Of a DNA stretch of 64,000 bases, positions 14,345-45,867 are shown piece after piece. Each line of letters opens with the position of its first letter. Within the stretch, counting starts at the first letter, position 1. This DNA comes from Candidatus Xenobia bacterium. GTDB lineage: Bacteria > Vulcanimicrobiota > Xenobia > Xenobiales > QWHO01. Position numbers and translations under genes: made by a program. The stretch covers positions 59,574 to 123,573 of the forward strand of contig BTUM01000008.1 in NCBI GenBank assembly GCA_045863235.1, read 5' to 3'. The notes beneath the pieces are model-generated. The model made no database searches, had not been told where the DNA came from, and was given only the letters and a program-made list of their open reading frames with translations.

Positions 14345-15991
14345 TCAGATTCCTGCTCCCCCCGGCTGGCGGCTGCTGGCCACCAGAACGAACAGAAAGA
14401 GCGCGCAGGCAACCAGCAGGTTCAGCCAGCGATTCTTGACCAGGATCTCGTCGGCAGCGGCCAGGGCGGTGTCAGCCGGCACCTCGTAGACAAGCAAAAA
14501 GCCGTCCACCGGCAGGTTGGCTCCCACCACATCCTGACCTGCCTCGTTGACATAGCGGCTGACGGCGGGCAACTCCTCCCGGCCGGGCAGAGTTAGCCGG
14601 AAACCCTCTGCCAGCCGATCTTCCAGCCTGGAGCGAGGAAGGACCCCGGCCAAAAAGCGATTCGGGTCGGGCCTGGCAGCGACCAGCAGGAAATGATCTC
14701 CGGGGGGCATCAGCACCTTCCCGCTGGGAGCGCCCAGCGGAGCGCTCCAGGGTGTGAGCGACTGGAGCACGTTCCCCGAGCTGTCGAGCAGCAACAGGTT
14801 CTCGAAACCCTCGACCGCCTCGAGAGGAGCCTGGCTCTGCGCCAGGCGATTGAGCGCTTCGCGGTAGGGTGAGAGCTCGCGAAGCAGCTCGCTGCGGGCC
14901 ATCTGGCACACCTGCTGGACGCGGTGCTTGACCTCCACGGCCAGTAGGGTACGCGTCTTCAGGGTCAGATAAGTGTTCACGAAGAGCGGAAAAAAAGCCA
15001 GCAGCAAGAGGCTCAAGGCTACCAGGGGTCGGGCCAGGAAGCGCTCCAGGCGGTAGCGTCGGGTCCAGGGCCGCCGGCAGAGCAGCGGCTCGCGAGCCTG
15101 CCAGCGTTGCAGGTCGTCCACCACCTCGTGCATCGAGGGGGTGCGCGAGATGGGATCGACCCGAAGGCAGCATTCGAGGATGCAGGCCAGCTCCGGGTCG
15201 ACCTCCGGGCGAAGCTCGCGCACCGGCGTAAGAGACCTGGAGGTGAGCAGCTTCTTGTAGAGGTCCAGTTGCTCCAGAGTGTTGGCGCTGGAGCGCAGCG
15301 AGGCCTGGTCTTCCTCTGACAACCGCGGGTAGCGCTCGGTCAAGAGCGCGTAACAAGTCGCCCCGAAGCTGTAGACGTCCCAGGAAACGTCAGGCACCGC
15401 CTCGGCTCGCACCTGCTCAGGAGGCATGAAGCCGAGGGTTCCAAAGGCCGCGCTCCTCTCGCTCTGGCTGCGCGACTGGCCAAAATCGGACAGGCGAACC
15501 CTTTGCTCTTCGTCGAGCAAAACATTGGACGGCTTCAAGTCACAGTGCAACACGCCCTTGTCGTGCAGGTAGCGAAGGGCGGTGGCCAGCTGCTGGATCC
15601 AGCTGACGGCCGTCTTGAGCGGGGGGCGCAGCTCGTTATCGAGAGAGCGCGCGAGCAGTGGCATGACGTAGAAGGGAGGATCATGCTCCAGGTCGGCATC
15701 CAACAAGCTGACCACGAAGGGATGACTGGCCACCTCGCGCAAACGGGCGACCTCCAGCCTGAGGTAATCAAAATCCAGGCCGGAGCGTCGAAAGAACTTG
15801 ATCGCCACGTGTTGACCGGTGCGCAGCTGCACCGCTGCCCACACCTCACCGAACGAGCCTACGCCCAGCCGACACTCCAGCCGATAGCCCGGCGGCGTAG
15901 CCGGCGTTTCCCCCGATTCGGTACGGGCCTGCTCGAGCTGATCGGGAGCCTGAACGACAGTGGCCTCCGGAGGCGGGTCGTCGGGGAGCAT
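14345..15991 (-). CDS. Hanks-type Ser/Thr protein kinase with TM-sensor-TM C-terminus
   Basis: LGVGSFGEV, VAIK, HCDLKPSN, DFG, GTLGFMPPE, DVYSFG; two hydrophobic helices flanking a ~170-aa loop. Confidence 0.92.
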   Translation of the reverse strand: MLPDDPPPEATVVQAPDQLEQARTESGETPATPPGYRLECRLGVGSFGEVWAAVQLRTGQHVAIKFFRRSGLDFDYLRLEVARLREVASHPFVVSLLDADLEHDPPFYVMPLLARSLDNELRPPLKTAVSWIQQLATALRYLHDKGVLHCDLKPSNVLLDEEQRVRLSDFGQSRSQSERSAAFGTLGFMPPEQVRAEAVPDVSWDVYSFGATCYALLTERYPRLSEEDQASLRSSANTLEQLDLYKKLLTSRSLTPVRELRPEVDPELACILECCLRVDPISRTPSMHEVVDDLQRWQAREPLLCRRPWTRRYRLERFLARPLVALSLLLLAFFPLFVNTYLTLKTRTLLAVEVKHRVQQVCQMARSELLRELSPYREALNRLAQSQAPLEAVEGFENLLLLDSSGNVLQSLTPWSAPLGAPSGKVLMPPGDHFLLVAARPDPNRFLAGVLPRSRLEDRLAEGFRLTLPGREELPAVSRYVNEAGQDVVGANLPVDGFLLVYEVPADTALAAADEILVKNRWLNLLVACALFLFVLVASSRQPGGAGI

Positions 15992-16049
15992 GCCAGCCGA
16001 TTCCCCTCCGGCAGGGGGTCGTCCTTTTCAGACCAGCTTCAGGCTGCTT

Positions 16050-16058
16050 TGCTAACAT
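16050..16058 (+). promoter_or_regulatory. putative extended -10 promoter for a leaderless transcript
   Basis: TGcTAACAT ends 6 nt before ATG 16065; no SD present. Confidence 0.4.
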
Positions 16059-16064
16059 CTGGTC

Positions 16065-16721
16065 ATGCAGATGGCCAGTATCGGGGTGGCGTCTCATTTG
16101 CCGATGACCCGCCCGGGGGCGAGCTACTCGCCACCGGAAGGGAAACTCATCCAGGAGACCTTTTCCTCCCTGGAATCCCCCGAAGATCTCCCCCGCGCTC
16201 TGGCGGCCCTGAAGTCGCTGGGCCAGACCTCAGATGAGCAGTTGAGCAAGCTCGTGCACGTGACCCTTTCGGCCGTGGTGGCGGCGGGCGGCGCCGGTCC
16301 GCTGGCTCTGGCTCTCTGCAAGGCAGCCTTCTCGGCCCTGCAAGAGCCCGGCCTCAAACCCGCCACCCTGGCCGCCCGCCTGGCCGCACCCCTGACCAGG
16401 AGCGAGCAGAACCCCGTGATGGAGGCCATCGCCCGGGCCGTCACCCCCTTCTACGGCATGGCTCCTGGCACCCAGAAGCTGGTGGATGACGTGCACCTGT
16501 TCCTCAGCCCCATCCACGACGGCGCCGATGGCAACGACCCGGCGGGGCGGATCAAGTGCGTCCGGGGCAGCCTGGAGAAGCTGAGCGAGCTCGACGACGA
16601 CCGGTCCTATGCCGGCTACCTCTGCCGCGAGAGCCGCGACGGTGCCGGTGGTGGCCAGGTCGGCGAGCTGGCCGGCCGGGCCTTCGTAGGCGGGGTACTG
16701 GTCCGCCGCCGAGCCAGCTGA
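16065..16721 (+). CDS. hypothetical helical protein with basic C-terminal GG motif
   Basis: Fills the gap between kinase and TamB; GC3-biased codons; ends VGELAGRAFVGGVLVRRRAS. Confidence 0.7.
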   Translation: MQMASIGVASHLPMTRPGASYSPPEGKLIQETFSSLESPEDLPRALAALKSLGQTSDEQLSKLVHVTLSAVVAAGGAGPLALALCKAAFSALQEPGLKPATLAARLAAPLTRSEQNPVMEAIARAVTPFYGMAPGTQKLVDDVHLFLSPIHDGADGNDPAGRIKCVRGSLEKLSELDDDRSYAGYLCRESRDGAGGGQVGELAGRAFVGGVLVRRRAS

Positions 16722-16885: not shown

Positions 16886-19800
16886 ATGCGTCCTCATGCC
16901 GCGCGGCTACGAAGGTTCGTTCTCCGGGCCCTGACCCTCGGACTGGCTCTGGGAGTCGTGGCCCTGCTGCTGCTTTTCCTCTTCTTCACGCCTTTGGTGC
17001 GCATGGCTCTGGGCCCACTGACGCGAGAACTGGACGGCCGTCTCGTCTTCGACCGGGCCCGGCCTGGTCTGGGCGAGATCGTGCTGGACAACCTGCGAGT
17101 CGAGTCCAGGCAAGACGGCCTGGTGCTGGAGGCCTCCAGCTTGCAGGTCGGCCTGCACCCCCTGGCCTACCTCTCCAGCGGTGACGGGGCCGCCCTGGTA
17201 GGCGACATCCGCGTCCACAAGCCGGTGCTGACCCTGCGCGTCGACTCTGATGGGGTACTCAACCTCAGCCGGCTGTTCCGCCCCCGTCCCCCCGGTCGTC
17301 CCTGGCTGGCGCGCTACCGGGGTCGCATCCAGGTCACGGACGGCACCAGCTTTTACCGTGATGAGCGGCGTAACCTGTTCGTCTACCAGGCGGGCTTCCA
17401 AGGTTTGCTGCAGACGGCCGGGTCGAATCCAATGGCAACCCTCGAGCTGACCGTGCAACCGGTCCAGCAGCTGCCGGGAGAGCTCAAGCTGACCGGTTCC
17501 CTGGGCCGGGAGGCTCCCGTCCTCGCTCTGCGCCTCCTCGTGGAGAACCTCGAGCTGAAGCCCTTCTCCGGATACCCGGGCCTGCAGGGCCTGGCCAGCC
17601 TTTCCGGGGGCCAGCTCGACGGCGACCTCCAGGTAGCCGGCCGCGCGAGCAGTTTCGCCGGCCTTCCCAGGGCTCTCTCCTGGTCGGGCAGCCTCCGACT
17701 GGCGAGCGGCGCGCTCAGCGCCAATGCCCTTCCCTGGCCGCTCGAGCAACTGAACGGTCAGGCAACCCTGATGGGCAACGCGTTGCACCTGGAATCCTTC
17801 CGGGGGCAAGCCGACGGCACGCCATTCCAGGTGCGCGGCGACGTTTTCCTACCTCCCCGACTGTGGCTCGATCTGCAAGCCGACTTCCCCAGAATCCAGG
17901 CCCACCGTCTGCGTGAGCTGATCCCCCGGGCTCCGGAGCTGAAAGGCGAAGCCCGACTCGAGCTTTCCCTCGAGGGCTCGAGTCGCAATCCCGAGCTACG
18001 AGGCACGGTTCGCTCGGCCCACCTTGGCAACGGAGAGCAAGAGCTGCACGATCTCGATCTCAGCTTCCGCCTCTCCGAGCGCCTGCTGGAGGTGGAGCAG
18101 GCCAGCGCCAGGGCGGCTGGAGGGCAGCTCTGGGGCAGCGGGTTCGTATTCCTCGATCAGAAGGCCTTGCTGCTCGAGCTGGGCGGCGATCACGCCTCTC
18201 TCCAGGAGCTATCCCCTGACCTGAAAGGCCAGGCCAGCTTCCAGGCCTCGGTGCTGGGAACCCTGGCCGAGCCAATGGTCCAGGGCTCAGCTGAGGTGCT
18301 GGCCTTCCAGGGGCTGGGCCAGGTGCTCGACTCGGCCCACACCAACTTCTTCTTCGGCGCGGATACGCTGCTTTTGCGCTCGGCCACGGTGGCCCGAGGC
18401 GGCACCGAGATCCGCCTTCCGGGCGCTTACCTCGACTTCAAGGACGGCTACCTCGCCGCCGGGGTGGAAGCCGAGCAGGTGGCCTTCCCGCCCCTGACCA
18501 TTCGGGGGCGCAAGCTGACCGGCAGCCTGAGCGGCAAGGGAATGCTCTGGGGGCTCTGGAACAAGCCTTCCGAGCTGACTGCTCGAGGGACGCTGCGCGG
18601 CTCGAGCCTGGCCATGAGCGGCCACGAGCTGAGCGACCTGGCCGGCGCCTTCCTCCTGTCCGGCGGGCGGCTCTATTTCCCTCACCTGAACGGACGCATC
18701 GAGCAGGGCCAGGTGGAAGTGGCTGGCAGCTATGGCCTCAAGGGCCAGGACAGTCGCCTGGCCATGCACGGCACCGACCTGCCGGGACGAATCTTGCACG
18801 ACCTGCTGGCCCTGCCGCTCACCTTCACCTCCCCGATCCAGGCCCGGCTCCTCTACGTCGACACCGGGCCGGACTGGTTCGAAGCCGTGGCCGGCAACCA
18901 TGAGGGCCGGCTGGCCACTGAAGGCGTGCGGCGTCAGGATGAATCGCTTGAGGCGATGGTCTGGGCCGATCAGGTCGACCTGCGCGTGCTGGGTATGCCG
19001 GCCTTCCACCGGGTGGCCGAGGAGTTCACCGGACTGGTCGGATTGGAAGGCCCGGCCCGAGCCTTCTCCTTCATCGCCAGCGGCGAGTTGGCGGGCCCCC
19101 AACTGGGCCTGACCAGCCCGGTCGAGCTGAACACCTGGGGAAAGCGCCAGGGCACCGTGCTGAAGCTCGAGCAGGGTTATCTCGCCTGGGATTATCCCCC
19201 CACCCGCTCGGTGGCCACCACCGGCGTGCACGGCCAGGCCTACCCCTTCCCCGGCCCGATCTTCGCCCCCCCGCTGCACAAGGTCAGCCTGGGGGAATTC
19301 TCCACCCCCACCTGGGGCCTGCTGAGCTTGCGCGGCACCATCGACCTGGCTGCCCGCCAGGTGGATCTGCGCTACAAGGCTCAAGACATCGAGCTGGGCT
19401 GGCTGGCCTCTCGCCCCTGGCTGGACAGGCGGCGCACCCTGAACCAGGCTCTGGACCATCACGTGGCTGCCGGCGTGGGCGACGCCACCGGCACGGTACG
19501 CGGCTCCTTCGCCATCCCCACGGTCACGGGTCAGGTTGATCTACCCTGGATGGCCCTGGAGGGCGGGCAGGTCTACTCGGCCCGCGGGCGACTGAGCGGC
19601 AACCGCCGCCAGATGGCCTTCGAGCCCCTCTGGGTGAGCGCCCACCCCTTCGATTCCCGCCTGGGCCGTGGGCCCGGGGAAGACCTGATGGAGGTGCGCG
19701 GGCGGGTGGCCTTCGACTCGAAAGCGCCCTCCGAGCTCACGTTCAGCACCCGTGGCTTTGATGCGCCCCGGGCGGTGGCTCTCCTGCCCGAGCGATTCTC

Positions 19801-22645
19801 AACGCCCTTTGGTCGCCTCTACGGACAGGTCTCCTTCGATCGGCTGCGCCTGACCGGCCCCCTGTCGCGACCGGCCATGGCCGGTCAGTTGCAGATGCGC
19901 CGCGGAGGTCTGCCGCTGCAGGATCGAATCTTCCCGCTCGACAGCCTGCTCGTCGACTTCAAGAGCCAGGCAGGCGAGTTCGCCATCTCGCGCCTGGAGC
20001 TCGAGTCCGGCCAGTTGCGCATGCTGGGCAGCGGGAACCGTACCGCCTCGGGCGACTACGTGGCCCAGCTCTACTCGCACGACGTGCCGATGAGCTACTT
20101 CCACGGCCTGGGCGCACCCTTCACGGCCCTGAGCGGCAGCGCCGACCTGACCTTGCGGCTGCAGACCCGGGGCCGGCAGCCGGTCGCCTACCTGGGCCTG
20201 GAGTCCGACCAGCTCGCCTGGAGCCCGTCAGCCCTGACAGGACTGCCGGGCAACTCCATGCTGCTCGACCAGGTGCGTCTGGGCGGCCTGCAGCGCAACG
20301 CCGATGGCACCCTCTCCACGGGCTCGGGCCACGGGATCGAGCTGGCCTGGAGCGGCACCCGCGCCACCCTGGACATTCCACCCGACTCGCTCGGTTTCCA
20401 GACGGACGGAGCCAGCTTCACGGCCCAGGGCTCGGTCAGCTTCCAGCCGCTAAAGCCCGACGACCGGCTCTCCGACTGGTTCAAGTCGCCCGCCGGGCCC
20501 GATTTCGGGCCACTGGGCACGGGGCCATTCCAGGCCCGCATGGAGAATTTTACCATGAGCCAGCTGGCTGGCCTGCTCGGCCTGACCACCGACCTGGAGG
20601 GCCAGCTGAGCGGCACGGTCAGCCTGGAAGGCCAGTGGTACCGCGACCTGGAGACCCTGGGTGTCAGTCGGCTGCCCCAGTACGGCTTCGAGGTGCGCTC
20701 GCTGGAGCTGGCTCGCCAGCTCCAGGAGAGGCGGCTGGCTCTGAGTCTGGACGGTCCGGCCACCCTGAGCTTCGGGCGCGAGGGACCCAATGCCGTGCTG
20801 AGCCTGAGCCCGACCCGCCTCAAGGCCAACGGCGGGTTCCTGGAGGCGATGGGCCAGCTGGTGCTGGCAGGCAACAAGGACAGCAGCCTGACCGCGACGG
20901 TGCGGGACATGCCCCTGGAAGCCCTGGCCTGGTTGTATCCCACCGCGGCCACGGTGCGGGGCCACGTGGAGCAGCTCGACCTGAAGCTGCAGGGCCTCCT
21001 GCCCACGCCCGATCTGGATGTTTCTTTCCGAGCGGTGCGCGAGAGCGAACTGGTCAAGGGCGTCGAGCTCTCTCTGGCCGGCCAGGTGAGCGGCCGCCCC
21101 CAGAGCAACGGCAGCTACCTGGTCGACTTCGGCTCGCCTGGGGCCATTCTCACCATCGGCTCCGCCGTGCGAGCGGCCGAGCACCTGACACTGGGAGGCC
21201 AGGTCCCCCTGCGCTGGGTGCGCGAAGCGGCCAACCTGCCGGACCGGCTCAACTGGGCCTGGGACGGGCTGCGCCTGCGTAGCGACGGGGAAATGAGCCT
21301 CTCGGCCCACATCGAGGACCAGAACATGCAGCTTCTGGACACAATCCTGCCCCAGGTATCCCAGGCCTCGGGCAAGGTGCAGGGGCGACTCGACCTGACC
21401 GGCACCCTGGAGCTTCCCAAGGTGCAGGGAGGGCTGAGCATCGAGAACGCCAGTCTCTCAACCAGCCTGTTCCCCCAGCCGATTACCAACCTGAACGTGC
21501 AGACACGATTCGAGCAGATCCGTCCTGAAGAGGCCGAGGTGGTGGCTGGCGGCGAGAGCTATCAGGGGATGTTCCGCAGCCGCTACTCCATTGACCGCTT
21601 CGACGGCCTGATCGGCGGCCATCCGTTCCAGGTGACCGGCAAGGCCGAGTTGGCCGGCTTCGAGCCCACCTTCCTCAACCTGGGCCTGACCGGCCAGGGT
21701 ATCCCCCTGCAGCAGGAGCGCTTCCAGGGCACCGCCGACGTGGCCCTCACCCTGGAGGCCCGCCCCGGCCGGACCCGGGAGAATCCCAACCTGAGTCTCA
21801 TCCCGGTGGTCACGGGGCAAGTCAACCTGCCATCCGGCGATCTCACCTTGCAGCTCAGCGATGCCCAGCAGGAGCTGAGCACCTACCGACTGCCCCTGCG
21901 CTACGACGTGGACCTGGTTCTGGGGGACAACTTCTGGGTGCACGTGGGCGACTCGCGCGTGCGCGCCCAGGGCAACCTGAAGCTGCAGCCCGACTCGGTC
22001 ACCCGGGCACCCGTGCTCTCGGGACAGGCCTTTTTGTCTCGGGGCCTGTTGCAGATCCCCTTCTACAACGTGAGCTTCAACATTCGCCAGGGTTGGGCTT
22101 ACTGGGATCGCAGCCTGATCCCGACGCTCGAGAACGTGGAAGCGGATACCACCATCGGCGGCTACCAGATCATGGCCCGCATCGACGGCCAGTATCCCAA
22201 CCTGAAGCTGGACCTGTTCTCCAACCCGCCCCTGGCCCAGAACCAGCTGCTGCGGATGGTGGCTGTCAGCGGCCTGCCCGGCGGAGGCAGCGAGGTGGGC
22301 TCGACCAGCATCCCGATGGACAACTTCCTGCAGGCCCAGGGGTTGGCGGTGCTCTCGGGATTGATCGCCAGCCCGATCACCCAGCAGATCAGCAAGGTGC
22401 TCTTCTTGTCGGAGGTCAGCTTCGACTACCAGCTGCCGGCCACGTACGTGGTCAAACTGGCCAAGGCGCTCGACTCCTACGACCGCGTTCTGCTGACGCT
22501 GACCCGCATCCTGTACGGCAATGGTCTTGCCGAGAGTCTCTACGGGCTGGAGTGGCGCTTTCAGCCCAACCTGCTGACCCGGGTGGCCATGGACGACCTG
22601 GGGGGGATGCGCTTCTGGTTCCAGGGAATCTTCAGCTGGTGGTAG
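16886..22645 (+). CDS. TamB/AsmA-like translocation and assembly module protein (1919 aa)
   Basis: N-terminal TM anchor; Gly-rich repeated beta-strand segments (GTL..P, G.L..P); C-terminal DUF490-like region with LFSNPPL motif. Confidence 0.8.
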   Translation: MRPHAARLRRFVLRALTLGLALGVVALLLLFLFFTPLVRMALGPLTRELDGRLVFDRARPGLGEIVLDNLRVESRQDGLVLEASSLQVGLHPLAYLSSGDGAALVGDIRVHKPVLTLRVDSDGVLNLSRLFRPRPPGRPWLARYRGRIQVTDGTSFYRDERRNLFVYQAGFQGLLQTAGSNPMATLELTVQPVQQLPGELKLTGSLGREAPVLALRLLVENLELKPFSGYPGLQGLASLSGGQLDGDLQVAGRASSFAGLPRALSWSGSLRLASGALSANALPWPLEQLNGQATLMGNALHLESFRGQADGTPFQVRGDVFLPPRLWLDLQADFPRIQAHRLRELIPRAPELKGEARLELSLEGSSRNPELRGTVRSAHLGNGEQELHDLDLSFRLSERLLEVEQASARAAGGQLWGSGFVFLDQKALLLELGGDHASLQELSPDLKGQASFQASVLGTLAEPMVQGSAEVLAFQGLGQVLDSAHTNFFFGADTLLLRSATVARGGTEIRLPGAYLDFKDGYLAAGVEAEQVAFPPLTIRGRKLTGSLSGKGMLWGLWNKPSELTARGTLRGSSLAMSGHELSDLAGAFLLSGGRLYFPHLNGRIEQGQVEVAGSYGLKGQDSRLAMHGTDLPGRILHDLLALPLTFTSPIQARLLYVDTGPDWFEAVAGNHEGRLATEGVRRQDESLEAMVWADQVDLRVLGMPAFHRVAEEFTGLVGLEGPARAFSFIASGELAGPQLGLTSPVELNTWGKRQGTVLKLEQGYLAWDYPPTRSVATTGVHGQAYPFPGPIFAPPLHKVSLGEFSTPTWGLLSLRGTIDLAARQVDLRYKAQDIELGWLASRPWLDRRRTLNQALDHHVAAGVGDATGTVRGSFAIPTVTGQVDLPWMALEGGQVYSARGRLSGNRRQMAFEPLWVSAHPFDSRLGRGPGEDLMEVRGRVAFDSKAPSELTFSTRGFDAPRAVALLPERFSTPFGRLYGQVSFDRLRLTGPLSRPAMAGQLQMRRGGLPLQDRIFPLDSLLVDFKSQAGEFAISRLELESGQLRMLGSGNRTASGDYVAQLYSHDVPMSYFHGLGAPFTALSGSADLTLRLQTRGRQPVAYLGLESDQLAWSPSALTGLPGNSMLLDQVRLGGLQRNADGTLSTGSGHGIELAWSGTRATLDIPPDSLGFQTDGASFTAQGSVSFQPLKPDDRLSDWFKSPAGPDFGPLGTGPFQARMENFTMSQLAGLLGLTTDLEGQLSGTVSLEGQWYRDLETLGVSRLPQYGFEVRSLELARQLQERRLALSLDGPATLSFGREGPNAVLSLSPTRLKANGGFLEAMGQLVLAGNKDSSLTATVRDMPLEALAWLYPTAATVRGHVEQLDLKLQGLLPTPDLDVSFRAVRESELVKGVELSLAGQVSGRPQSNGSYLVDFGSPGAILTIGSAVRAAEHLTLGGQVPLRWVREAANLPDRLNWAWDGLRLRSDGEMSLSAHIEDQNMQLLDTILPQVSQASGKVQGRLDLTGTLELPKVQGGLSIENASLSTSLFPQPITNLNVQTRFEQIRPEEAEVVAGGESYQGMFRSRYSIDRFDGLIGGHPFQVTGKAELAGFEPTFLNLGLTGQGIPLQQERFQGTADVALTLEARPGRTRENPNLSLIPVVTGQVNLPSGDLTLQLSDAQQELSTYRLPLRYDVDLVLGDNFWVHVGDSRVRAQGNLKLQPDSVTRAPVLSGQAFLSRGLLQIPFYNVSFNIRQGWAYWDRSLIPTLENVEADTTIGGYQIMARIDGQYPNLKLDLFSNPPLAQNQLLRMVAVSGLPGGGSEVGSTSIPMDNFLQAQGLAVLSGLIASPITQQISKVLFLSEVSFDYQLPATYVVKLAKALDSYDRVLLTLTRILYGNGLAESLYGLEWRFQPNLLTRVAMDDLGGMRFWFQGIFSWW

Positions 22646-40744: not shown

Positions 40745-41647
40745 TCAAGTCCTCCGCATTCTCTGCTCCAGCTCCTCCAGGGTGCGGGGCCAATCCTGGC
40801 GTAACAGACGCGACAGAGATCGGTCGGCCAGCAGCTTGCCCTGAGTCTGGCAGGTTGGGCAGTAGTTGGTCTCGTTCTCGGCGTAGCGAATGCGCTGCAC
40901 CGGCGTGCCGCAATCGGGGCAGGGCAACCGGTAGCGACCGTGCACTGCCATGTCCTCACGAAACGCGGTCACCTTCTCGGGGAACCCCTCCTTCGCCTCG
41001 CGCCGCAGCTTCTCCACCCATTCGCTCAGGGTGGCCCGGGTGGCCTGATAGAGCCGCTCCACCTCCTCGGCGGTCAGCTTCTGAGTGAGCTTCACCGGCG
41101 ACAGCCGGGCCCGATGCAGAATCTCGTCGGAGTAAGCGTTGCCGATGCCCGAGAAGAGGTGGGGGTCGGTAAGGCTGCGCTTGAGAGTGTGGTTCTCACG
41201 CTGCAGCGTGGCCCGGAAGGCGGCAAGGTTCGCCTCCAGCACCTCCAGGCCGCCCGGATCGAACGCTGCCAGCTGCTCTCGGCCGCGCACCAGGTGCAGG
41301 GAAGCGCGCCTCCTGGTGCCAGCCTCGGTCAGGTAGAGGAGCCCGGTGGAGAAGGTGAAGATGGCCATCGGCCTGAGGGCCGGACCCTTCTGGCTGGCCT
41401 GTCGCCAGCGCAGGCGGCCTGCGATCATGAGGTGCAACACGCTGAACAGCTCGCCCTCGAACTCAAAGACCAGGCGCTTTCCCAGACGGGCGAAACCCAC
41501 CACTCTGCGCCCGATCAACTCGGACACGGGCGGCTCCACGCTGCGCAGCAGAAAGGGGCTGCCCAGTTCGAGATTCTCCAGCACCGCGCCACCGATTCGC
41601 TCTTCGAGTGCCTCCAGGTAGACGACCACGTCGGGTAGCTCCGGCAT
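40745..41647 (-). CDS. Fpg/Nei-family DNA glycosylase
   Basis: N-terminal PELPDV, RLGK, HLMIAG, GIGNAYSDEIL (H2TH), CPDC..CPTCQ zinc finger. Confidence 0.93.
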   Translation of the reverse strand: MPELPDVVVYLEALEERIGGAVLENLELGSPFLLRSVEPPVSELIGRRVVGFARLGKRLVFEFEGELFSVLHLMIAGRLRWRQASQKGPALRPMAIFTFSTGLLYLTEAGTRRRASLHLVRGREQLAAFDPGGLEVLEANLAAFRATLQRENHTLKRSLTDPHLFSGIGNAYSDEILHRARLSPVKLTQKLTAEEVERLYQATRATLSEWVEKLRREAKEGFPEKVTAFREDMAVHGRYRLPCPDCGTPVQRIRYAENETNYCPTCQTQGKLLADRSLSRLLRQDWPRTLEELEQRMRRT

Positions 41648-41723: not shown

Positions 41724-43739
41724 GTGCAGATCCCGCCCACCGGATTGACCTTTTCCCCGGCGCTGCGGCCCCAGGTCGCTGCCGACGCTCAGGCTCCTGT
41801 GCAGGCAGCGGCCGAACAGCGGCCGGCCCGTCTGCCAACGGTGGCCGAGCTGAGGCAATGGGCCATGTGCGAGCCGGAGCGTGCCCAGAGCGAGCTGCTC
41901 GGCCTCCTGAAAGGGCGAGCCGAAGGTCTGGCGCGCCTGCGAGCCGTGCTGACGGCGGCCAAAGGCGATGAGCCTTTGAAACGTTTGCTCGAGCCGCACC
42001 GGCAGCAGATCTGGAGCACGGGCAACATGGCCTTCAATCTCAAGCTGCTGGAGGAGAAGCACCTGCCCGACACCGGTTTCGCGCAGCGCGAGTTGTGGCC
42101 CCGGGTGGGCGAGAGCTCGGAAGCGACCCGAGCCCTGCAGACCTTGTGGGAAGTGGCAGGCCCTTACGACCGTAATCAAAGGTTGGCTCCTCTGCTGACC
42201 CTGGAGCGACCGATCGGCCAGGAAATGGGCACCCTGCTGGAACAGCAGTTCACCCGTTGGAGTCGGCCGGGAGCCGAGTTGCGTGCTCACCTGCAGGCCC
42301 GGGTGGAGCAGTCGCTGACCCGGCTGGCCGAGCACCCCCTGGGCCAGGCGCTGCCCGACCCCGAGCTGGAGGCCCATCGCCAGCAACTGCAAGCGCTGAC
42401 GCCATTCGTGGAGGACAAGCAGCTGGCCCGGCGCTTGCTGGAGCGGGTGATGGCCGATCCCAGCTTGGCGCTCTTTAGCGAAGCCGGCAAGGCTTCGGGA
42501 CTTGCCAGCCTTGTCTACCAGCGGATCTTTCCCGACCCGGAAATCAGCCAGGCTCTGCTCTCTGAGCTTGGCAGCGAGCTGAAGTCGGCCGGAAGCCTGG
42601 CCGGGCTCTCCGAGCGGGGTCTACGGGTGTTCGGTGTGCTGGTGGCCCAGGCCGACGACCGGTCCGTGATGGGCCCGCTGGGGGCCGTTCTGGAAGACGA
42701 ATTCCGCCGGCCTCACAGCGACCCGAATCAGGCCGAGCTGCTGACCCGCCTGCTGGTTCTGAATGCCAGTGCCTGCTCCAGCGCCTTGCAGGGCAACTGG
42801 CGCATGGAAGAGAGCTTTCCACGCTTGCGCCAGATGGTGGAGCTGCTGGTGGAGTCCAAGTGGGCCCACGCCGACCGCCAGTGGCACCACCTCGAGAACG
42901 GCTGGGCGGGGGGGCTGACCGAGCAGTTGGAGAAGCACCTCTGGCACGGAATCTATGGCCAGGATCCGGTGCCCACCGTGGCCCCCGTTCAGGACGGGTC
43001 CCTCAGCCTGAGCGTCAAGGCGGGCCGCCAGCACGTGGCCGAAATGCTGGACCAGTTTGCCGCCGGACCCGAGAATCCCAAGGCCGGGGCGGCCATCCAG
43101 ATCCTCGAGCATCTGGCCCAGCGCGATCAGATCCTGGCCGATCACCTCCTGGCCGACAGCAAGACCCTGCTGCGAGACTGGAACTCCGTGCCCGTCGAAG
43201 GGGTGCGCTACGCTGTCGCGCGCCTGCGTAACCGCCTGCTCGAGCGCAACCTGAAGCTGCCGGCCGCCGAGCGCGAGGCAAAGCGCGAGGAGACGCTGCA
43301 GATCGCCGCCAGCATGGGACGCGACGGCGTGCCCCTGGTGACCGCACTGCAGACCTACTACCCGGCCGTGACCCCGGTGGCCACCCGGCTGCTCGATCCG
43401 CAGGCGGTGCTGGCCCTGTATCAGGAGGTGCAGTCACACGGGCCCAACCTCAATCAGCGCTTCGAGTGGGTGGATCGCCTGCTGACCCTGGTACAGGCTC
43501 AGGGCTCGGAGCACGTCTTGGAGGATACCCTGAAGGGCTATCGGCGGCTGGAAGAGCTGCTGGCCAGCGGCCAGAGCCTGACTCAGGCCATGCAGGTGGT
43601 CGCTCTGGAGATCCTCGACCTCAATGGCCTGCTCGGCGGGCAGCCGAACGCCGGCCGAGCGCCCACCATGATTCGGGAGGATTCCACCTCCACGACTTTC
43701 GGAGGCAGCCGGCTCAAGAAACGACGGGTCAGCGACTGA
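41724..43739 (+). CDS. hypothetical helical protein with basic C-terminal GG motif (671 aa)
   Basis: Long ORF filling the gap; Leu/Glu-rich; ends IREDSTSTTFGGSRLKKRRVSD. Confidence 0.75.
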   Translation: MQIPPTGLTFSPALRPQVAADAQAPVQAAAEQRPARLPTVAELRQWAMCEPERAQSELLGLLKGRAEGLARLRAVLTAAKGDEPLKRLLEPHRQQIWSTGNMAFNLKLLEEKHLPDTGFAQRELWPRVGESSEATRALQTLWEVAGPYDRNQRLAPLLTLERPIGQEMGTLLEQQFTRWSRPGAELRAHLQARVEQSLTRLAEHPLGQALPDPELEAHRQQLQALTPFVEDKQLARRLLERVMADPSLALFSEAGKASGLASLVYQRIFPDPEISQALLSELGSELKSAGSLAGLSERGLRVFGVLVAQADDRSVMGPLGAVLEDEFRRPHSDPNQAELLTRLLVLNASACSSALQGNWRMEESFPRLRQMVELLVESKWAHADRQWHHLENGWAGGLTEQLEKHLWHGIYGQDPVPTVAPVQDGSLSLSVKAGRQHVAEMLDQFAAGPENPKAGAAIQILEHLAQRDQILADHLLADSKTLLRDWNSVPVEGVRYAVARLRNRLLERNLKLPAAEREAKREETLQIAASMGRDGVPLVTALQTYYPAVTPVATRLLDPQAVLALYQEVQSHGPNLNQRFEWVDRLLTLVQAQGSEHVLEDTLKGYRRLEELLASGQSLTQAMQVVALEILDLNGLLGGQPNAGRAPTMIREDSTSTTFGGSRLKKRRVSD

Positions 43740-45867
43740 ACTGCCGTTCGAGCTCCTCGGCCCGGGGGACGGCGGGATCGCCTGGCTCCCAGCCAAACCA
43801 GAGATAGACCACAGCTGGCAGAGTGACTCTGCAGTAGTAGCGCAACCGCTGGGTGGCCACCGGCCGGCCGTTCTCTGACCAGACCCAGCCGGCGAAGGGC
43901 TGGGTACGACCCTTATGCATCTCGTAGCGAAAGCGAGTCGGAAAAACCGGATGGATGCGGGCCTGCAGGCGGCGCCCCCGGAGCAGGCAACCCATGTCGC
44001 CTCGCATCATCACGTCGATGTGAGGGGCGAGCAGCAAGACCTCCTCGAGTTGCACTTCCCCCTCGCCCTCCAGGCTGTCGCGCACGGCCAGGCGCTTCTT
44101 CTCGGGCTGGAACAAGAGCTCACGACGCAGACGGAAGGGTCGCTCGGAGCCCATCCAGACGTCGCGGCCGCCGGCCATGGAGAGGCCTTCGCGGCGCTGC
44201 TCCACGGCCAGGCGATGTCCCTCCCCGCTGAGCTGCAGGGGCTCGAGCTCTCCGGCCACGCGCGGGGCTGAGTGGCAGGAAAGGGAGGCGAAGGCCTGAG
44301 CCACCGAGCCTGGAGCTGCCGGCCCTCCCGGCTCGACCAGGACGGGCTCGCCCTCCAGGGTCAGGACCAGGCTGAGCAGATCGTCGTGGGCAAGGGGGGG
44401 CGGGAACCTGGACTCGGGGGGTGCCTCCAGCGGCAAGCCCCGCAGCAGGCACCAGCTCGAGCGCGACTCCCAGCCGTCGCGCACGGTCACCAGCCCGGCC
44501 TCGGGATAATATCCTCCCACCGGGGGCAGAGCGGTATCGCTCAACGAGTCATAGCGCGACTGGGCCGAGGGGCCGAACCACCAGAGCATCTCCATCGGCA
44601 TCTCCCCCGCCAGTCGCGCCAGCGCCCCGTGCCCCAGGGCCAGAGCCCCGAAAGCGAGCAAGCGCTGGGTGTGCTCGGAGGGGCCACAACAGCGGCCCAA
44701 CAGGCCCGGACCCTGGCCACGTCCGATCTCGGGCACGAGCGCGTTGGGCGGGCGCAGATGGCAGAGGGCCTCCAGAGCCTCCTGGGCCCGAGCTGCCAGG
44801 ACATCACCGGTGTGCATCTGGTTCAGGCGGTGCAGAGCTGCTGGCAGCAACAGCCACTCGCAAGCCTGGCGCTGGGCTGCCGCGGAACCGCTCTTGTGCA
44901 GTCCGTCCTGGCCCAACTCGTTCTGGACACAGATCGGGAAAGCCGCCGATGACTGGCGCAGCCACTTCTTGCTGAGCACCAGCTCGGGCAGGGTCAGGGC
45001 CAGCACCTGCAGCGCCGAGGCCGTGCAGAGGCGGGGGTGCTCGTGCAAGCTGCGCGACAGAGCCAGACCGTGTAACAGCAGCGTGCGCAGTACACGGCCC
45101 AGCACATCGGCCGTCAACTGGGCCGACTTGAGGAAGTAGTGCATGGCCAGCAGCCAGTTCAGGGTGCGGTGGGCCACCATCTCGGGGTCCATCCAGTTGA
45201 CCCCGAAGAGAGGCGGATTGCGCTCGCTCCAGTCCACCATCTGCACGATGAACTCGCTGGCGAAGCGCTCATGGCCGGTCAGCCAGTAAGCCCGCCCCAT
45301 GTCCACGAAGTGACCGTGACGGTTGAATTCCCAGGTCACCTGGATGGCCGCCTCGGGACTCGTCCCCGCCAGCTGCTCCTCGAGGTCCTCCAGCGAGCCG
45401 TACATCCACGAGCCGCCCTTGAAGTCGGAGAACCAGTCGATGGCTCCCTGAAAGCTCTGCTCCTCCACCCCCAGAGGGCCAAAGGTGTGGTGCAGCGCCC
45501 GCTCGACCTCGCTCAGAAGCCGGTTGGCCTCTTCGCGCCGCTCGGCCAGAGCCGGCCGCAGCATATCGCACTCGGTGAAGTGCAAGAAGAATAGCGGACG
45601 GATCCGGTCGTGGAAGTGCTCGAGCAGGTGCTCGGAAGCCTCATGCAGGCGCTGGGCCCGGGCAGCGGCCCGAGCTTCCTCCAGCGCCGCGGTGAGCGGA
45701 CTGAGCTGAAAGTAGAGGTCAGGCTCCTCGAGCGTGAGCGGAAGGCGCTCGTGCACATGCTCTGAGAGCCGCGCCTCCAGGTCTTCCTGGTGGCCCAGCA
45801 GAGTCTTGACGCGCTTCTTCAGACCCTTGAACAAACCGCCTTCAGACGGCGCCCACGGGCGCGCCAA
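43729..45867 (-). CDS. heparinase II/III-like protein
   Basis: WEFNRH, W...NPP..GVNW, R..NW, DGLH, HDDLLS...GEPVLVEPG, HS; located in a sugar-modification cluster. Confidence 0.8.
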   Translation of the reverse strand: MARPWAPSEGGLFKGLKKRVKTLLGHQEDLEARLSEHVHERLPLTLEEPDLYFQLSPLTAALEEARAAARAQRLHEASEHLLEHFHDRIRPLFFLHFTECDMLRPALAERREEANRLLSEVERALHHTFGPLGVEEQSFQGAIDWFSDFKGGSWMYGSLEDLEEQLAGTSPEAAIQVTWEFNRHGHFVDMGRAYWLTGHERFASEFIVQMVDWSERNPPLFGVNWMDPEMVAHRTLNWLLAMHYFLKSAQLTADVLGRVLRTLLLHGLALSRSLHEHPRLCTASALQVLALTLPELVLSKKWLRQSSAAFPICVQNELGQDGLHKSGSAAAQRQACEWLLLPAALHRLNQMHTGDVLAARAQEALEALCHLRPPNALVPEIGRGQGPGLLGRCCGPSEHTQRLLAFGALALGHGALARLAGEMPMEMLWWFGPSAQSRYDSLSDTALPPVGGYYPEAGLVTVRDGWESRSSWCLLRGLPLEAPPESRFPPPLAHDDLLSLVLTLEGEPVLVEPGGPAAPGSVAQAFASLSCHSAPRVAGELEPLQLSGEGHRLAVEQRREGLSMAGGRDVWMGSERPFRLRRELLFQPEKKRLAVRDSLEGEGEVQLEEVLLLAPHIDVMMRGDMGCLLRGRRLQARIHPVFPTRFRYEMHKGRTQPFAGWVWSENGRPVATQRLRYYCRVTLPAVVYLWFGWEPGDPAVPRAEELERQFSR

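Follow-up and report, generated by a model that had tools for sequence, protein, structure and literature searches.

A short C-terminal peptide tag on unrelated proteins of a Candidatus Xenobia bacterium: a candidate sorting signal with a shared promoter

Proteins can carry their address at the C-terminus. In the GlyGly-CTERM/rhombosortase, PEP-CTERM/exosortase, MYXO-CTERM and LPXTG/sortase systems, a short, lineage-restricted C-terminal signal is found on many unrelated proteins, and C-terminal address tags have repeatedly led to new secretion and sorting machines (sortases, exosortases and the type IX secretion system, T9SS). The signals of type I secretion systems (T1SS) are also C-terminal and uncleaved, and sit on Sec-signal-less proteins of any size. 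Here, we describe a C-terminal peptide tag that, like these signals, is short, lineage-restricted and present on many unrelated proteins. It was noticed in a 64,000-nucleotide (nt) stretch of DNA from Candidatus Xenobia bacterium (assembly GCA_045863235.1, contig BTUM01000008.1, positions 59,574 to 123,573), which we refer to as “the window” (C8:59574-123573 of genome G000 in our numbering). The assembly comprises 8.36 Mb in 166 contigs, with 65.8% G+C and 97.6% completeness. A preliminary description, made from the letters of the window alone, reported that two open reading frames (ORFs) end in the same motif and suggested that the motif is an export or targeting signal. We discuss the distribution of the tag, the promoter that many of its carriers share, and what the tag may do.

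The two window ORFs carry the tail with identical spacing, as reading both of them confirmed. ORF1 (16065-16721, plus strand) encodes a 218-amino-acid (aa) protein that begins MQMASIG, has a Ser/Thr/Pro-rich N-terminus and ends in VGELAGRAFVGGVLVRRRAS. Its tail (16650-16718, plus strand) consists of the linker GGGQ, the motif VGELAGRAFVGGVLVRRR and the residues AS, followed by the stop codon (16719-16721). ORF2 (41724-43739, plus strand) encodes a 671-aa, mostly helical-repeat-like protein that starts with GTG (MQIPPTG) and ends in IREDSTSTTFGGSRLKKRRVSD; its tail core (43671-43724, plus strand), IREDSTSTTFGGSRLKKR, is followed by RVSD and the stop codon (43737-43739). The tails score 24.1 and 24.6 bits, respectively, against the round-1 version of the profile described below, and neither protein has a Pfam or NCBIfam family. 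Orthologs of ORF2 at 89% identity occur in G002, in G001 (partial) and in a public record (L061), and one at 61% identity occurs in the congener G003. The tail is kept in all of these, and the GTG-CAG-ATC start is kept in the three that reach the 5′ end. The ORF1 ortholog in the congener G004 (61% identity) also keeps the tail, and ORF1 relatives at 32–36% identity retain the hydrophobic, Gly-Gly and Arg positions of the motif.

The motif is a real, selected, terminal peptide tag on unrelated proteins. Six-frame translation of G000 gives 73,495 ORFs of 60 aa or more, in which the strict pattern, [VI]-x-E-x6-[VF]-G-G-x-x-[VL]-[RK]-[RK]-R, matches 13 times, 11 of these matches lying no more than 6 aa before the stop codon; its core, [VILMF]GG..[VILM][RK][RK]R, matches 46 times, and 37 of these matches end within 8 aa of the stop codon. 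Gene calls and start codons throughout come from a heuristic codon-usage score rather than a gene finder, which yields a set of 6,077 coding ORFs. In this set, the strict pattern has 13 matches (11 C-terminal), whereas reversed sequences have none and 20 rounds of shuffling within proteins average 0.0, and the core has 39 (35 C-terminal), compared with none reversed and 1.35 shuffled; the last 13 positions hold just 3.1% of the residues. A tail profile built from 51 seeds and iterated once (two rounds) finds 164 ORFs at a threshold of 12 bits. The preliminary description had named genome-wide C-terminal enrichment as the test of its motif, and the outcome sides with it: the motif ends within 12 aa of the stop codon in 148 of the 164 ORFs (within 5 aa in 113), and the controls are close to zero. 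It lies 13–35 aa before the stop in 10 ORFs and more than 35 aa before it in 6. Two of the 164 (116 and 169 aa, with poor codon scores) were judged false and dropped, leaving 162 carriers, so that roughly 2.5% of genes encode a tagged protein. One protein has two copies of the motif, one internal and one terminal. In three of five carriers whose motif is internal (see below), it is followed by approximately eight repeats of a SYKSGVAGVYNP-like unit. Loci L008 (G000 C135:61-2361) and L057 (G000 C3:76119-78410) have such an arrangement, an internal tail followed by approximately eight repeats of 20–22 residues resembling SYKSGVAGVYNP..G.VEF.E.

Carriers are mostly unrelated to one another outside the tail. 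When the bodies were clustered with tails removed (blastp, single linkage, expectation value [E] up to 1e-5), the 162 fell into 79 unrelated clusters, 61 of them singletons; the largest have 29, 22 and 12 members, and both ORF1 and ORF2 lie outside the twelve largest (each with at least 2 members). The carriers range from 153 to 1,864 aa and are spread over 82 contigs with only loose clustering. A Pfam scan (E up to 1e-3) of the 60 carriers with the highest scores left 46 without a family, in agreement with the earlier view that the tail sits on unrelated, mostly orphan proteins. The tail itself shows selection at the level of the peptide. All synonymous codons are used at its conserved positions (GGC, GGG, GGA and GGT for Gly; GTG, GTC and GTT for Val; CGN and AGG for Arg, with Lys as an alternative residue), and third-position identity between tails is 0.40, compared with 0.34 expected from composition. 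In orthologs at 61% identity, the motif positions are kept, with an overall tail identity of 0.55–0.73 compared with 0.61–0.63 for the bodies. It could be argued that the similarity has no function, being due to chance, to a single paralogous family or to a DNA repeat at the 3′ ends of genes. The three largest body clusters do hold 63 of the 162 carriers, meaning that the carrier count partly reflects paralogy. However, the near absence of matches in shuffled and reversed sequences, the 61 singleton bodies and the conservation of the motif in other families and classes of the phylum (see below) all speak against this explanation, and a DNA-repeat origin is excluded because synonymous codons vary while the amino acids at motif positions stay. 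We consider the explanation refuted, with a residual probability that is negligible.

The consensus of the tail is G-[VI]-x-E-x5-V-x-V-G-G-V-R-[VL]-[RK]-x-[RK], and both window ORFs fit it. In a profile of 144 aligned tails, the first strand has V or I in 126 and E in 91, followed by five variable residues; the second strand has V in 108, any residue, and V in 100; the two Gly positions are kept in 135 and 134 tails; and thereafter come V (111 tails), R, V/L/I, R/K, any residue, and R/K. Ahead of the motif lies a linker rich in Pro, Gly, Ala, Ser and Thr (profile columns 7–12), which generalizes the Gly/Pro linker first seen in the window. The tag is thus ~22 residues long. A flexible linker leads into the first strand (G-[VI]-x-E), which five variable residues separate from the second (V-x-V); the Gly-Gly turn then connects to the third strand (V-R-[VL]), and a cluster of basic residues follows. 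An AlphaFold2 model of the isolated peptide (60 tails, 42 columns), of moderate confidence, predicts strands at columns 25–27, 31–34 and 37–40 with Gly-Gly at the turn between the last two (predicted local distance difference test ~80–83 in the last 12 residues, 71 overall), suggesting that the tail forms a small beta-meander. Searches for described relatives were negative: the tail profile gave only chance-level rows against PDB sequences and Pfam, and NCBIfam gave no tail match at E up to 1 in 12 scanned proteins, 11 of them tail carriers. These results uphold the earlier statement that the motif lies outside any known domain. A search of 5.8 billion proteins returned 30 matches at E up to 0.01, none functionally named; one is labelled “hypothetical protein [bacterium CPR1]” (protein P0015).

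Most carriers share one sharply defined promoter, which marks a regulon of more than 230 genes. Many carriers begin M-[QILN]-[IV]-x-[PA], and a TANNNT box ends 6–7 nt before the start codon; the box is found at that position for 83 of 151 carriers, compared with 740 of 5,926 other ORFs. Alignment of the upstream regions gives the consensus TTCAG-N5-(T)TTCAG-N10-TANNNT. From 51 carrier sites we derived a 34-nt position weight matrix (PWM); at 18 bits or more, it picks out 232 sites in G000, compared with 4 in reversed/complemented controls. Eighty-one of the 232 precede carriers and ~149 precede other ORFs, several of which have degenerate, sub-threshold tails. The start codon falls 6–7 nt past the −10 box in 125 of 230 sites, which implies that the transcripts are mostly leaderless. 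A site of at least 18 bits is found before 96 of 162 carriers and 22 of 600 sampled other genes; 51 of the carriers also served to train the PWM, which makes the comparison circular in part. TTCAG-N5-TTTCAG, 10 nt upstream of the −10 box, may be a direct-repeat activator site; its geometry, with an 11-bp period and an end 10 nt from the −10 box, is reminiscent of pho-box-type sites. The ORF1 promoter (16025-16058, plus strand; 22.3 bits) has the direct repeat TTTTCAG-ACCAGC-TTCAG, a gap of 10 nt and the −10 box TAACAT (16053-16058), and is the sole PWM site of at least 14 bits in the window. Since its −10 box ends 6 nt upstream of the ATG, the transcript is likely leaderless, which accounts for the lack of a Shine-Dalgarno sequence that the preliminary description had noted for both ORFs. 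The same account does not extend to ORF2, which has no canonical regulon promoter.

The N-termini of regulon members are distinctive and lack Sec signals. Among 120 regulon proteins with leaderless starts, residues 2–25 are enriched in Pro (0.109, compared with 0.064 genome-wide), Ser (0.092, compared with 0.061) and Ala, and depleted in Asp and Glu; a Sec-like hydrophobic stretch is present in only 3 of the 120. A hidden Markov model of the N-terminal 48 residues is weak, with 10 ORFs at 12 bits or more. For the carriers themselves, none of 58 with a reliable leaderless start has a Sec-like hydrophobic core (mean hydropathy ≥2.0 over any 12 consecutive residues among the first 40), so the earlier observation on two proteins extends to the set. 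The composition is compatible with a disordered, Ser/Thr/Pro-rich, acid-poor type III secretion signal. The recognizable domains of carriers include several of extracellular type. The Pfam families in the 60 best-scoring carriers are PQQ_2 beta-propellers (9), WD40 (1) and InhA-like MAM (3, one with discoidin), along with one sub-threshold match, and one MAM carrier also has a choice-of-anchor J domain in the NCBIfam scan. Tail-less regulon members are richer in known families, which were found in 30 of the 60 best. They include two lipid desaturases, a GDPD, a PlsC-type acyltransferase, an MGDG synthase, a 5′-nucleotidase, an adenosine deaminase, papain, C26 and C92 peptidases, alpha/beta hydrolases and a histidine phosphatase, as well as DHH, LOG, DeoC, glycerol-3-phosphate-oxidase-like and thioredoxin-reductase-like proteins and weak clostripain-like matches (3 of 60). 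In the tail-less members checked, the catalytic domain starts at residue 55–180, behind an N-terminal extension.

The tail is restricted in its phyletic range. The profile has 149 matches in G000 and 105 to at least 150 in each of four congeners, compared with 0–2 weak matches (E of 0.06 or worse) in each of 16 genomes of two sister families. At E up to 0.01, matches are confined to 16 of 301 Eremiobacterota genomes: the five congeners (G000 and four others, with at least 29 matches each), two genomes of family f4 (7 and 12 matches), and members of genera g8 and g9 (1–2), family f11 (2–3), family f19 (3) and family f15 (two of 207 genomes). Eight of the 301 genomes are unpublished (G177, G212, G230, G232, G245, G247, G263 and G275), and none of these is among the tail-bearing genomes listed, so that our conclusions do not rest on them. 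All seven matches read in four other families end 1–7 aa before the stop codon, several of them on propeller-like bodies. Five of the seven N-termini are readable, and all five are of the same style, with no signal peptide; two of the five genes lie behind a promoter-like site, and an ordinary Shine-Dalgarno sequence precedes one that comes from another class. The shortened promoter pattern TTTCAG-N10-TANNNT occurs 68–158 times in the five congeners, where the backwards control gives 4–17 matches. Genera g4 and g5 of family f2 show a moderate enrichment (83–143 compared with 16–40), family f3 hardly any, and genus g2 none. In G013, a g5 genome, the N-termini behind 20 promoter sites that were read are the same as those in G000, and 5 of 17 complete promoter-bearing ORFs (L079, L080, L082, L087 and L089) end in a variant tail that lacks the basic cluster (e.g., ..LTSDAEAVHIGEVDVPIQP), with the pattern hydrophobic-x-[ED]-x4-V-x-[IV]-G-[DNE]-x2-V-x-[IV]-x-P. 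A profile of these five sequences has 29 matches at E up to 1 in G013, compared with 0–2 in four other f2 genomes, counted irrespective of where in the protein the match lies. By this distribution, the tag and regulon are old and variable, and the form seen in the window has hugely expanded in one genus. The earlier notion of a lineage-specific family therefore stands insofar as the tail is lineage-restricted, but the tail is also old and present in low copy across several Eremiobacterota families. Two public labels of close relatives, “uncultured Burkholderiales bacterium” (L061) and “bacterium CPR1” (P0015), conflict with the Eremiobacterota/Xenobia placement.

Our preferred reading, to which we give a probability of about 0.5, is that the tail acts in docking or sorting and marks some members of an arsenal exported independently of Sec. 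In this model, the tag would have spread by recombination within the genus onto ~160 proteins of at least 79 unrelated families. The Ser/Thr/Pro/Ala-rich, acid-poor N-terminal extension would direct Sec-independent export, probably through a flagellin-less, flagellar-type type III secretion system (T3SS) core. The C-terminal beta-hairpin would then serve as a docking module that addresses part of the arsenal to a common receptor, its docking face presumably formed by the hydrophobic V-x-V / V-x-V residues together with the flanking Glu and Arg/Lys. Such a receptor might sit at the export gate, making the tail a substrate-class or sorting signal, or on the envelope, where it would retain proteins at the surface after export. 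An N-terminal signal of this kind has a precedent in Campylobacter, where the flagellar T3SS is reported to export non-flagellar proteins (PMC2764114). The earlier proposal that the window proteins belong to a family of secreted effectors fares partly well under this model: a promoter held in common with genes for hydrolases and lipid enzymes that bear N-terminal extensions fits a secreted arsenal, whose putative export signal may be either the tail or the shared N-terminal region.

That only some members of the regulon are tagged (81 of 232 promoter sites) also fits a different division of labor. In this alternative, the hairpin and basic cluster act after export as a retention or targeting module that binds an anionic envelope component (lipopolysaccharide or a surface polysaccharide) or the surface of a target cell, keeping tagged proteins on the producer or fastening them to prey while untagged regulon enzymes are released. 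The tagged set is indeed enriched in binding- and adhesion-type domains and the untagged set in enzymes, a basic cluster follows the hairpin, and the tolerance of 0–12 extra residues and of occasional internal positions is as in a small binding domain. Conversely, the variant tails of G013 and part of the f4 tails lack the basic cluster, any ligand is hypothetical, and a binding domain would not need to be at the extreme C-terminus in 90% of cases. We regard this alternative as plausible in outline but rather unlikely.

Several export machines were looked for and not found. VirB4 (PF03135), a marker of type IV secretion systems (T4SS), was not found in any of 21 genomes of the order, including G000, and was detected in a control genome; the analogy to T4SS basic tails drawn in the preliminary description fails for want of the machinery. 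TssC (PF05943; type VI secretion) was likewise not found in any of the 21 genomes, and G000 has no match to the phage-type sheath (PF04984) or the encapsulin shell (PF04454). What G000 does have, outside the window, is a flagellar-type T3SS core cluster at contig C27:64000-79400 (L064, L065), with genes for FlgB, FlgC, FliE, FliF, FliG, FliH, FliI, FliJ, FliK, a short hook-like protein, FliM, FliN, FliO, FliQ, FlhB and FlhA; two more rod-type genes are on contig C74. Flagellin, FliS, the P-ring protein FlgI and the MotB plug were not found in this 97.6% complete genome. Flagellin is limited to 5 of 21 genomes of the order, those with a second full-length FlhA, suggesting that a filament-less flagellar-type core is the conserved state. 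Basal bodies of Buchnera similarly represent a flagellar-type export core with no filament. G000 also has three secretin genes. As the only one-step exporter found, the flagellar-type core is the candidate by elimination. Five soluble paralogs comprising only the C-terminal domain of FlhA (L066-L070) are encoded in G000, at C80:28012-29544, C3:26973-28325, C1:377631-379007, C106:14839-16857 and C107:13658-15910; two are fused to FliG_N, in either order. Each of the 21 genomes examined in the order has such paralogs, and stand-alone forms are numerous in a global protein library. Co-folding of the tail (alignment A2) with the FlhA cytoplasmic domain (alignment A4) gave a score of 0.01, which is evidence neither way. 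More broadly, and only as a tentative proposal that we think will probably need revision, a flagellum-derived, filament-less T3SS might be a general exporter in Eremiobacterota, serving a leaderless, PIP-box-like regulon through a bipartite address made up of the N-terminal extension and the C-terminal hairpin.

A number of observations count against a docking or sorting tag on exported proteins. Export of the carriers is itself an inference. Known type III secretion signals are N-terminal and, to our knowledge, a second, C-terminal signal would be unprecedented. The flagellar-type core is present in 21 of 21 genomes of the order, with or without tails or promoter, and full-length FlhA is present in 278 of 301 genomes of the phylum (probably the same sample as that used for the tail); because the core is nearly universal, it does not co-vary with the tag. 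A promoter site of at least 18 bits is lacking for 66 of 162 carriers, and the PWM was trained on carriers. DeoC, thioredoxin-reductase-like and LOG proteins could equally be cytoplasmic, such that the regulon could be developmental or stress-related. Five real carriers hold the motif 170–220 aa before the protein end, meaning that a terminal position is not obligatory. Lastly, there is no recurrent partner gene family among the 719 genes within three genes of a carrier, the largest neighbor clusters being kinases/cyclases (19), subtilase-like proteins (8) and clostripain-like proteins of ~430 aa (6); nor does any ATP-binding cassette (ABC), membrane fusion protein (MFP) or TolC family recur among these neighbors or among 60 regulon members, a survey that did not extend to a direct search for T1SS genes.

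This last result bears equally on the possibility that the tail is a T1SS (ABC/MFP/TolC) secretion signal and that the similarity among N-termini is a by-product of the leaderless promoter and start context. The sizes of the carriers, their lack of Sec-type N-termini and the flexible linker that sets off the motif would all suit such a signal. However, ~160 substrates with genes on 82 contigs would be without known precedent for a T1SS, no RTX-type Pfam family was found in the 60 scanned carriers, and an N-terminal extension of 40–100 residues is left unexplained. We consider T1SS export of the carriers unlikely.

The conserved Gly-Gly could alternatively mark a processing site, with cleavage there or at the Arg/Lys cluster by a co-regulated C39-like or clostripain-like peptidase removing the basic end and maturing or activating the protein. 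Conservation of Gly-Gly in 135 and 134 of 144 tails is in line with this idea, as are the weak clostripain-like matches in the regulon. G000 encodes two stand-alone C39-like peptidases (C5:186428-187108 and C31:75412-76263), one with a regulon-type N-terminus (..GPVDRVTLG..) and the other with N-terminal membrane helices, and within the order stand-alone C39 is found in 8 of 9 genomes of promoter-enriched genera compared with 0 of 12 others. Outside the order the association breaks down: of the five genomes with tails in other families, three gave no match to C39 and two have ABC-fused forms. C39 was therefore rejected as the reader of the tag. The sequence around Gly-Gly is also unhelpful to the idea. 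Double-glycine leaders are N-terminal and have helix spacing (−4/−7/−12), whereas the tag has hydrophobic residues at −3 and −5 and Glu at −10, i.e., the spacing of a beta-strand, and the G013 variant has a single Gly. Processing at this site seems decidedly unlikely, a little more so than T1SS export.

C-terminal tags can be degrons, and Lon degrades unchaperoned type III effectors in some bacteria. The tail might accordingly be a stability switch that marks effectors for Lon/Clp proteolysis unless they are exported or chaperoned. The contig with the flagellar-type cluster does carry a Lon gene, ~11 kb from flhA and outside the cluster, although this is a single observation. Known C-terminal degrons are read at the free end, whereas 0–12 variable residues follow the motif here, and a structured hairpin conserved across classes is more than a degron needs. 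We view a degron as very improbable.

Some further observations concern the surroundings of these genes. In the window, ORF1 is divergent from a Ser/Thr kinase gene (14345-15991, minus strand), and a 1,919-aa ORF (16886-22645, plus strand) starts 165 nt 3′ of it on the same strand. ORF2 is flanked by two minus-strand genes: upstream of it lies a divergent one for an Fpg glycosylase (40745-41647), and downstream a convergent, heparinase II/III-like one (43729-45867), with which it shares its last 11 nt (43729-43739). A comparison with the ESM Atlas returned nothing for ORF1. For ORF2, the nearest feature clusters (0.85, 152 shared features) pointed to an SctW/SepL gatekeeper, a candidate that we rejected since the score is below the accepted level and there is no match to Pfam HrpJ. 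The ORF1 stretch is matched (59–86% of sampled words) in sequencing runs of four studies besides the probable source, three of which concern bioreactor sludge, wastewater and an anaerobic digester. Two RNA libraries contain near-identical contigs that lie on ORF1; such contigs prove neither transcription nor a transcript start, and the absence of one over 15955-16052 carries no weight. Elsewhere in G000, at C27:54348-57072 (minus strand; L064), just downstream of the flhA region, two identical tandem genes encode an 81-aa helical protein, one of them behind a regulon promoter. They adjoin a gene for a 545-aa protein with a Pro-Pro-Gly-Gly repeat region, the last ~90 residues of which resemble the 81-aa protein; neither protein has a Pfam family.

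The tag has no database model, and the promoter provides a second, independent handle on its carriers. From the two together, a list of probable effectors can be drawn up and tested; it spans enzymes that modify nucleotides, lipids and peptides, along with propellers and adhesin-like proteins. The bacteria concerned are common in wastewater sludge and belong to a phylum that is almost entirely uncultured. The tag and promoter also draw attention to the filament-less, flagellar-type export core found throughout the order, and the receptor of the tag could show how this core, or another machine, selects its substrates. If a flagellum-derived T3SS is indeed a general exporter in Eremiobacterota, the growth of its arsenal in one sludge genus to more than 230 genes, ~160 of them tagged, would suggest a predatory or host-associated lifestyle. 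The tag would in that case represent a secretion or sorting signal of a new class, by which the effectors of the phylum could be recognized computationally. We found no description of the tag, promoter or regulon in the literature searched, which included passages of PMC9259500 and PMC11484240 and did not cover one key paper on the phylum.

Among described signals, those of the GlyGly-CTERM type are similar to the tag in combining a signature motif (Gly-Gly in the tag) with a terminal basic cluster, and choice-of-anchor J, the domain present on one carrier, is defined by its association with tripartite sorting tags. However, GlyGly-CTERM and PEP-CTERM signals include a transmembrane helix, whereas in the profile of 144 tails only 3–4 residues (V-R-[VL]) separate the Gly-Gly of the tag from its Arg/Lys cluster. 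Their carriers also have Sec signals, in contrast to those described here, and no NCBIfam sorting-signal model matches the tail in the 12 proteins scanned. Substrates of T4SS, with the Arg-rich tails of VirB/VirD4 systems or the Glu-rich “E-block” of Dot/Icm, are similar in having C-terminal signals that involve Glu and Arg/Lys, and in numbering hundreds of unrelated effectors per genome, many of them orphans. The tag differs in being a defined, structured motif rather than a compositional bias, and in the absence of VirB4. Signals of T1SS share with the tag their C-terminal position, Sec independence and indifference to cargo size, but they are poorly conserved, serve one or a few neighboring substrates and often follow RTX repeats, none of which was seen here. 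Cargo-loading peptides of encapsulins and the C-terminal domains (CTDs) of T9SS substrates are likewise C-terminal address elements on unrelated cargo. Unlike encapsulin cargo, the carriers have no shell gene to go with them in G000, and unlike the tag, with its ~22 residues on Sec-less proteins, a T9SS CTD is a beta-sandwich of 70–100 aa on Sec-exported proteins.

The N-termini and promoter have parallels of their own. Export of Cia proteins by the flagellar T3SS of Campylobacter, as reported in PMC2764114, also involves N-terminal, non-Sec signals that do not appear to be cleaved. No C-terminal tag is known for flagellar export systems, and the link between regulon and machine is drawn here by elimination only. 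The closest parallel for the promoter is the HrpX regulon of Xanthomonas and Ralstonia. Its PIP box (TTCGB-N15-TTCGB before a −10-like box) is likewise an activator site built as a direct repeat; it keeps a constant distance to the −10 box and marks a large, scattered effector regulon whose members can be found by it. The site described here differs in its repeat (TTCAG), in its period (11 bp compared with 20 bp), in its pho-box-like position 10 nt from the −10 box and in its mostly leaderless transcripts. In kind, the tag is akin to C-terminal sorting and secretion signals; it lacks the features that define each of the known families testable here.

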